Assembly (NCBI GenBank): GCA_964016885.1
Contig: OZ024762.1
Span: 22,010,001-22,074,000 of the forward strand
Length of the DNA stretch: 64,000 bases
Source: Eledone cirrhosa
Lineage: Eukaryota
Reading direction: 5' to 3'
Position 1 is the stretch's first letter; every line of letters starts with the position of its first letter. The translations under genes were made by a program, and so were the position numbers. Below the pieces are notes generated by a model that saw only the letters and a program-made list of their open reading frames with translations, searched no databases and was not told the DNA's origin. Shown in pieces: positions 10,482 through 10,906 of the stretch.

Positions 10482-10484
<3 letters not shown>

Positions 10485-10906
10485 AAAGTTTTATTTAAGA
10501 TTGTTGGGTTACAACGAGTAAATATTTTATAACTGATATAAAAGCACTCAACAGTTTCTGGAGTAGGTTTACGGTATTAAACAAATGGAAACTATATTTA
10601 TAAAACCATATTTATTTCGTTATATATATTTCTGGGATATCATATTAAAAATATGGTATGCCTTCCTCAGACAAAATGCAATACATAAGCTGTTTTATAA
10701 ATAATTATTGACATACCTTATAATAATGCAACTTTAAATGGAAGTTGCATTATTATATGGTATGTCAATAATTATTTATAAAACAGCTTATGTATTGTAT
10801 TTTGTCTGAGGAAGGCATACCATATTTTTAATATGATATCCCAGAAATATATATAACGAAATAAATATGGTTTTATAAATATAGTTTCCATTTGTTTAAT
10901 ACCGTA
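10482..10906 (-). mobile_element. TA-embedded fold-back hammerhead element, family A
   Basis: About 165-bp near-perfect inverted arms (10570-10734 and 10742-10906) plus unique tail 10482-10569, (TA)n on both sides. Second copy at 43022-43475. Confidence 0.85.
10798..10863 (+). ncRNA. Minimal type I hammerhead ribozyme (family A); mirror copy on minus strand at 10613-10678
   Basis: TATTTTGT-CTGAGGA-A-stem II-GAAA-T-ATAT-A-TA-ACGAAATA: 8-bp stem I, 2-bp stem III with palindromic ATAT loop, AUA triplet. Confidence 0.75.

Follow-up and report, generated by a model that had tools for sequence, protein, structure and literature searches.

Family A, a pair of inverted repeats embedded in (TA)n DNA, is probably the 5′-truncated 3′ end of a Penelope-like element (PLE), most likely one of the (TA)n-targeting Hydra clade, that was inserted by way of two cDNAs. 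What the window (the whole 64-kb stretch of DNA analysed here) itself displays is the architecture, with outer ends that are fixed, variants mirrored between arms, motifs for a hammerhead and a stem-loop, and unequal as well as solo arms. A 3′ end of a Hydra-clade PLE, which family A probably is, represents a kind of sequence that is already known. The origin of PLE inverted repeats and tails has, however, been termed unresolved (PMC8557442), and second-strand synthesis was left unvalidated in a study wherein both target strands were cut and extended in vitro and the tail lay between two RT start sites (PMC11167929). The PLE architecture is published; mirrored versus arm-specific variants, arm asymmetry and end positions make the open step testable from genome sequence.

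Family A copies share a tail and both outer ends

Family A includes copies A1 (10482–10906, 425 nt) and A2 (43022–43475, 454 nt) and an old relative, A3 (Table 1). The initial annotation held that A1 and A2 have the same tail and the same outer end of the inverted arm, and this is correct. Their tails, unpaired and on the left side, are 88 nt each and differ at four of 88 sites; both outer ends are common to the two copies, and the inverted arms finish on the same base. The annotated fixed arm start is thus present in both A copies, and it recurs at the matching position in the arms of family B. The arms of A1 match in 163 of 165 columns and those of A2 in 177 of 178. (TA)n houses both copies, with TA runs of 35 and 22 nt beside A1 and of 32 and 21 nt beside A2. 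A3 has no long inverted arm. It carries a short template hairpin at about 28965–28997, the place where the A centres fall (z −5.8).

Head-to-head inverted arms, a tail at one end in both copies, and a hammerhead whose sense runs towards the 3′ end are PLE features. The inverted pseudo-LTR (pLTR) with a tail has been described previously (PMC8557442; PMC3846280; PMC4209133; PMC8969392), and these cis features support the assignment of family A to this arrangement. PLE membership rests on them because no Pfam match to an RT or GIY-YIG domain was found in 150 of the 175 open frames of the window, where the only credible matches were to a mariner helix-turn-helix; the copies themselves are too short for an ORF. 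A conserved ORF was also sought in the family A tails, and the frame that is open in A1 has a stop inside it in A2.

The 16-nt core of the direct repeat that flanks A2 occurs exactly twice in the window, plus a copy with two mismatches at 43823. Only A2 has a clear flanking direct repeat, and 26 of the 31 listed elements have none at all; matches at G, B7, B9 and B10 were rejected since they stem from neighbouring repeats or microsatellite. In this single case, the TA runs beside A2 exceed in length their counterparts in the other repeat copy, as if insertion had added TA units.

Table 1. Positions of family A features and of related copies in the window
Feature	Position	Strand	Remarks
A1 tail, 88-nt unpaired 3′ extension	10482..10569	−	putative outer RT start 10482, adjoins (TA)n
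A1 bulged stem-loop	10546..10564	−	ACTC / 3-bp stem / 2-nt bulge / GAGT; 5 nt into tail
A1 tail-side arm	10570..10734	−	sense on minus strand
A1 type I hammerhead motif, tail arm	10614..10677	−	core starts 10670; predicted cut after 10621
A1 centre, 7-nt spacer	10735..10741	+	part of inverted arm; putative AACTT microhomology join
A1 inverted arm	10742..10906	+	outer end 10906, putative fixed inner start site; adjoins (TA)n
A1 hammerhead motif, inverted arm	10798..10863	+	core 10806; predicted cut after 10855
A2 tail, 88 nt	43022..43109	−	stem-loop 43086–43104, 2-bp inner stem
A2 tail-side arm	43110..43287	−	hammerhead motif, core 43210
A2 centre, 10-nt spacer	43288..43297		
A2 inverted arm	43298..43475	+	hammerhead motif, core 43375
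A2-flanking 26-nt direct repeat, left	42963..42988	+	right copy 43487–43512; candidate long target-site duplication
A3, old family A relative	28740..29000	−	178/261 columns identical to A2; tail and arm, covarying hammerhead
B2	27230..27435	+	family B copy
Other family B copies	11748–11947, 34554–34746, 38990–39149, 54737–54942, 55021–55182, 55248–55382, 55488–55634		
Family B solo arms	44473–44606, 55410–55459		
B12	31149..31213	+	inverted arm joined to tail fragment; no overlap, no palindrome; inverted arm ends at predicted cut
Array of 8 family B hairpin-and-tail units	39190..40925	+	one centre; one unrepaired arm mismatch in 8/8
C1	7575..7764	+	hairpin and tail with hammerhead and tail stem-loop
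C2	56978–57162		further copy of family C
C3	44157–44311		further copy of family C; stem-loop test negative
F1	25291..25942	−	family F: mirrored variants, very unequal arms, hammerhead core 25621, tail stem-loop
F2	26755–27136		second copy of family F

Differences between the A copies are mirrored in both arms

Copy-specific differences had been reported in both arms, and they are there. In the 165 columns common to the four A arms, two sites are mirrored, separating the copies in both arms: a substitution (10574/10902 versus 43114/43471) and a 1-nt indel (10707/10769). There are no sites at which the copies share an arm-specific variant. The other arm sites are two single-arm changes, both in A1, and one three-state site at which the A1 arms agree and the A2 arms differ. 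If arms changed independently at the rate of the tail, about 7.5 within-copy differences would be expected per copy, versus the two and one seen (Poisson P ~2e-4). These three differences in total indicate that the A arms were made alike after the A1 and A2 lineages split. Two parallel changes by chance would have a P of 6e-5 to 0.02, for assumed per-lineage rates of 1–4.5%.

The mirrored sites tell of homogenisation after the lineage split, but neither of when nor of how it took place. The annotated statement that mirrored mutations ‘show’ copying of both arms at insertion was therefore too strong, and the A pair by itself leaves ‘at insertion’ unproven. The differing centres, cited in the same place, are real. 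However, the A1 centre equals the A2 centre minus 31 nt, with AACTT repeated at both break points, and could be a 31-nt deletion of the latter, so the centres are weak and not independent evidence.

Hammerhead motifs fix the polarity of the element

A search of the 64-kb window with a type I hammerhead descriptor gave eight matches (null mean 0.03): the four A arms, A3, and one each in families C, F and Q. In every A arm the motif points to the tail, which fixes polarity: the tail would mark the 3′ end, whereas a truncated second copy, the inverted arm, would lie on the 5′ side. Among A, A3 and Q the helices have 90% of cells paired and six two-sided changes, and none of 500 shuffles scored as high, on the basis of four distinct rows. 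In A1 and A2, helix II is closed by an A-A pair (10.1/11.1) in place of the usual G-C.

Other predictors responded little. Rfam models at gathering score gave no match in the window, hammerheads included, and at E<=10 gave no hammerhead for family A. The E-value scans returned miRNA-like hairpin noise and a weak RAGATH-1 hammerhead match for family F (E 4.9). The hammerhead motif of A is not its minimum-energy fold (z −0.99), and in A, A3, B, C and F the hammerhead regions fold as single strands no better than shuffles do; the region of family Q reaches z −2.6. The ribozyme is partly present in family B copies, with a poor helix II. Units of the family B array have no descriptor match, and the complete core is absent from them. 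Family Q comprises a solo arm at 34278–34480, whose hammerhead has a helix III common to family A, and a second copy at 34765–34926 with 31-nt arms and a tail bearing a bulged stem-loop.

Tails begin with a bulged stem-loop

In families A, B, C, F and Q, the tail opens 4–9 nt past the inner end with RCTC, followed by a 2–6-bp inner stem, a 2-nt bulge and GAGY. Inner stem sequences vary among these families yet stay paired. For one copy each of A, B, C, F and Q, the shuffle P is 0.053, 0.007, 0.036, 0.005 and <0.001, respectively. The A1 stem-loop has a 4-bp outer and a 3-bp inner stem, and the minimum-energy fold of the A1 tail shows the same structure; the inner stem is 2 bp in A2 and A3. The feature is found in five of 12 families. 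Tests were negative for C3, E, H, G, R, U, V and T, among which E and H have the ACTC start only. Tail length in A, B, C and F is about 65–90 nt.

The stem-loop pattern and the anchors for counting it were chosen after the tails had been seen. A window-wide scan with this pattern gave 15 matches (null mean 1.8). Ten of them correspond to the tail starts above, and another to a solo tail (44366–44431) that starts with the bulged stem-loop, ends at (TA)n and has no arm. Sequence alignment of tail starts followed by RNAalifold recovered no pairs, with the loops misaligned, and was replaced by the anchored count.

The same bulged stem-loop is visible by eye in four of the six published Hydra consensus sequences in File S7 of PMC8557442. 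It lies at the 3′ end of Hydra-2_Amil, Hydra-2_Ajap and Hydra-1_Crog (the last with one mismatch) and at the very 5′ start of Hydra-1_Ajap, and is not evident by eye in the Hydra-1_Amil or Hydra-1_Obim sequence of that file. The position in Hydra-1_Ajap suggests that the tail is perhaps the start of the next tandem unit. The stem-loop is a feature seen here in Hydra consensus sequences rather than a published clade criterion. No published description of it, or of a mirrored-mutation test, was found in a mostly open-access literature outside Repbase.

Unequal and solo arms point to two cDNAs

In the pathway that we favour, the element’s endonuclease would nick both strands of a (TA)n tract, by extension from Frangieh (2024). 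One nick would prime a cDNA at the outer start site, giving the tail and an arm. From the other, synthesis of a second cDNA would begin at a fixed inner site that lies 88 nt upstream and about 5 nt ahead of the conserved bulged stem-loop, with the same RNA or a sister RNA as template. Each cDNA would be extended in the direction of the RNA 5′ end and would terminate independently of the other, in most cases at a structured position, and their 3′ ends would be joined head-to-head through short microhomology. We infer every enzymatic step of this pathway, the priming order and the role of the stem-loop.

A second pathway within the same PLE, which we regard as unlikely but as the strongest competitor, would also make the arms at insertion. 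Here the first cDNA primes itself at a template hairpin and folds back, and an endonuclease resolves the product at the fixed inner site. Self-priming was put forward by Arkhipova (2013) and ‘EN-mediated resolution’ by Craig et al. (2021). Fold-back accounts for mirrored variants and for one tail per copy. Furthermore, both A centres sit at a small AACTT..AAGTT template hairpin that is also seen, and is strong, in A3, the centre of B9 lies on the helix III palindrome, and palindromes have been reported at inverted junctions (PMC3846280).

Fold-back does not readily produce the arm asymmetries, however. Template sequence absent from the tail arm is present in the inverted arm of A1, B4, B8 and B12, and fold-back cannot give the excess in A1, B4 and B8, the non-overlapping parts of B12, or the tail-less solo arms (B10 and the Q arm at 34278) unless a deletion followed. 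The A1 centre and the longer inverted arms could have such a source in later asymmetric deletion. Since simple fold-back without such a deletion yields neither longer nor non-overlapping inverted arms, two separately primed cDNAs are the simpler explanation. F1 and F2 have the reverse asymmetry, with a tail arm more than 200 nt longer. Each start site is also found by itself: B6 and A3 consist of a tail arm that has no long inverted partner, and B10 and the Q arm lack a tail.

Exactly one tail is present in each of the 17 two-armed copies of the multi-copy families A, B, C and F. With a free choice of start at each end, one tail would be expected in at most half of them, and the observed outcome has by arithmetic a probability of 0.5^17.

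Truncation was annotated as variable, which needs qualifying. The inner ends cluster: 14 of 23 family B arm ends lie 31–45 nt upstream of the predicted cut, and the A centres fall at the template hairpin. Three further family B ends are at the predicted cut itself, at +1 (B8 tail arm), +1 (B12 inverted arm) and +2 (B4 tail arm); none of the four A arms ends there. The three arms lie at 55098–55117, 31149–31170 and 39054–39072, and in two cases the partner reads through. Against a rough null the P is 0.001 for a 2-nt and 0.012 for a 5-nt window, for a pattern noticed post hoc. An end at almost this position would also be expected if RT stalled, or a deletion occurred, at the base of helix III.

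With considerable reserve, we suggest that Hydra-type PLEs use ordered double priming. The stem-loop would set the second RT start about 5 nt upstream, each end would use a different start, and the hammerhead would sometimes cut the template in vivo, leaving one arm that stops at the cut while its partner, which carries the same private variants, reads through. As part of that tentative proposal, the stem-loop might be conserved over the families of this genome and the cnidarian, echinoderm and crustacean consensus sequences. If ordered double priming is true, the genome is a direct record of how inverted pLTRs and tails arise. The tail stem-loop offers a concrete target for mutagenesis as a candidate signal for the second start site.

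Family B and a tandem array argue for arms made at insertion

The claim that the inverted arm is made de novo at each insertion draws no support from the A pair, and is likely on the strength of family B and a tandem-array control. Eight two-armed family B copies, one array unit included, could be aligned. By-copy sites occur in 25 of their 28 pairs (120 cells, which are not independent) and by-arm sites in none. Many of the B variants are subfamily markers, and private mirrored variants occur in four of the eight copies. By-copy versus by-arm sites number 4:0 in family F and 2:0 in family C, where one site is in the TA edge.

The array serves as the control. It has 28 by-arm cells and no by-copy cells, and this signature of whole-hairpin copying is missing from the dispersed copies. 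None of three unit-private changes at paired arm positions is mirrored, which together with the retained mismatch indicates that conversion is inefficient on that time scale. The units are separated by (TA)n spacers of differing length, and the array appears to be a PLE fragment on its way to becoming a minisatellite, with unequal exchange in TA runs as the probable cause.

These data bear on another explanation, to which we give a low probability, below that of fold-back. The whole hairpin could be inherited from master copies, with the arms homogenised afterwards by intra-hairpin gene conversion or repair and the centres altered by deletion. The array proves that whole hairpins can duplicate, the A1 centre is a simple 31-nt deletion product of that of A2, and mirrored B variants are to a large extent common to subfamilies, with private ones limited to half of the copies. 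Yet the array mismatch has been kept in all eight units with no private arm change mirrored, and the dispersed B pairs have no by-arm sites. All dispersed family B centres differ. B2, B5 and B7 show no mirrored differences from one another, yet each has a centre of its own; local duplications are present in two of these centres, and B2 and B7 have gained sequence there. In B8, whose arms measure 20 and about 60 nt, private variants are common to both. Elsewhere in the window, hairpin arms are mismatched at up to five of 33 columns or seven of 60, indicating that arms drift apart. B9 has two mirrored changes in 32 columns and a tail just 1 nt from that of B2 and B7, a pattern that could also be obtained by conversion.

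We consider it improbable that assembly or polishing homogenised the arms, or that fold-back reads created them. Near-perfect palindromes inside microsatellites, such as these, are hard to sequence. However, the ends are fixed to the base over independent loci, arms keep one or two mismatches, the array preserves its own, and the architecture fits published PLEs. Taking the two-cDNA and fold-back pathways together, both arms were likely synthesised at insertion.

Such repeats resemble MITEs or microRNA precursors, and they draw scores from the miRNA models of Rfam. A fixed-TIR MITE or foldback DNA transposon with a TA target duplication would have the long inverted repeats, TA flanks and lack of coding capacity seen here, and a mariner remnant lies in the window (37668–38473), but this origin is highly improbable, given that the tail places one arm 88 nt inside the element rather than at its terminus, lengths and centres vary (A: 425 versus 454 nt), solo arms exist, by-arm variants are absent and the arms hold a covarying ribozyme motif. 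The preference of the initial annotation for a PLE-type origin over such a MITE holds up, with a hammerhead in all four A arms, a one-sided tail, (TA)n targets and a Hydra-like tail stem-loop.

Other repeats in the window

The window is AT-rich, microsatellite-rich DNA with mariner transposase remnants and has a eukaryotic appearance. Masked self-BLAST of this single 64-kb window found many palindromes with one-sided extension. The 31 listed elements or fragments cover 8,895 of 64,000 nt (14%), and 17 of them have TA runs of at least 6 nt at both ends (background 0.23 per side). A hairpin at 51037–51152 has no TA flanks and was left out of the counts. Two symmetric single-copy hairpins, 33536–33877 and 25168–25239, have (TA)n on both sides and no tail, the former with a TA run in each arm. 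Seven other single-copy hairpins have one non-TA flank (11104–11569, 32005–32400, 38737–38951, 43525–43772, 56074–56228, 60247–60470 and 63405–63628); descriptors found no hammerhead or full stem-loop in them, and they may be other PLE families.

Insertions of different families adjoin, with TA runs in common, at 10482–11947, 43022–43772 and 54737–55634, suggesting that an insertion provides targets for subsequent ones. The mariner-like transposase at 37668–38473 is broken, with weak Pfam HTH_48 and HTH_32 matches, and is cut off by TA-rich repeats. A dispersed repeat of about 190 nt, which we take to be SINE-like, has copies that are 77–95% identical (12228–12408, 19229–19407, 20891–21078, 51098–51295, 52880–53062 and 55656–55961). 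Minisatellite arrays at 19699–20682, 9588–10001, 22799–24119, 51659–52024 and 52551–52836 include periods of about 123, 64 and 63 nt and a degenerate purine-rich type. An inverted dispersed pair (5996–6334 and 56375–56713) is 97% identical over 339 nt, with older relatives near 30160–30605.

Comparison with known systems

The closest resemblance is to the Hydra clade of EN+ PLEs (Craig et al., 2021; PMC8557442). As described there, PLEs have an inverted 5′-truncated copy and a tail, the former reported within the Hydra clade for Penelope-13_HM, and Hydra elements have (TA)n targets and hammerheads near the 3′ end, as in family A. Neptune and Naiad elements also favour microsatellites (PMC8557442). 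Families C and F have the helix III ACAG/YTGT of several Hydra motifs, and helix II is closed by a non-Watson-Crick pair, as it is in many of them (PMC8557442). Unlike described Hydra elements, the inserts here are 200–650 nt with no ORF seen, and their tails exceed the 30–40 nt given (PMC8557442). The family A hammerhead core motif does not appear in the accessible part of the PMC8557442 supplement.

Adineta Pen2a (PMC3846280) and Anolis PAc (PMC11167929) likewise have a head-to-head inverted pLTR, a tail on one arm and a pLTR hammerhead. Penelope/Poseidon systems share the AT-rich target and two fixed ends that fit two RT start sites (PMC3846280; PMC11167929). In vitro, the start site of PAc does not differ between strands, and ribozyme cleavage is not needed (PMC11167929). 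In contrast, the two ends here have different start sites in every case (17 of 17), and the predicted cut is where three arms stop.

Metazoan min-HHR and non-LTR retrozymes (PMC4209133; bioRxiv 10.64898/2026.07.22.740005) also have type I hammerheads with a short palindromic helix III, and in Schistosoma paired motifs lie 100–700 bp apart on opposite strands (PMC4209133). Retrozymes are head-to-tail units with a hammerhead in each (bioRxiv 10.64898/2026.07.22.740005), whereas family A is a dispersed inverted pair and the family B array repeats a whole hairpin without a complete core. A non-LTR retrozyme was rejected for family A on these two grounds. Bacterial and archaeal genomes, when scanned with a family A motif, gave no match.

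In LINE-1 twin priming, two target-primed cDNAs joined by microhomology give an inversion, with hardly any overlap between the parts and no fixed second start. In the copies analysed here, by comparison, the second start is fixed and the parts overlap into a palindrome.
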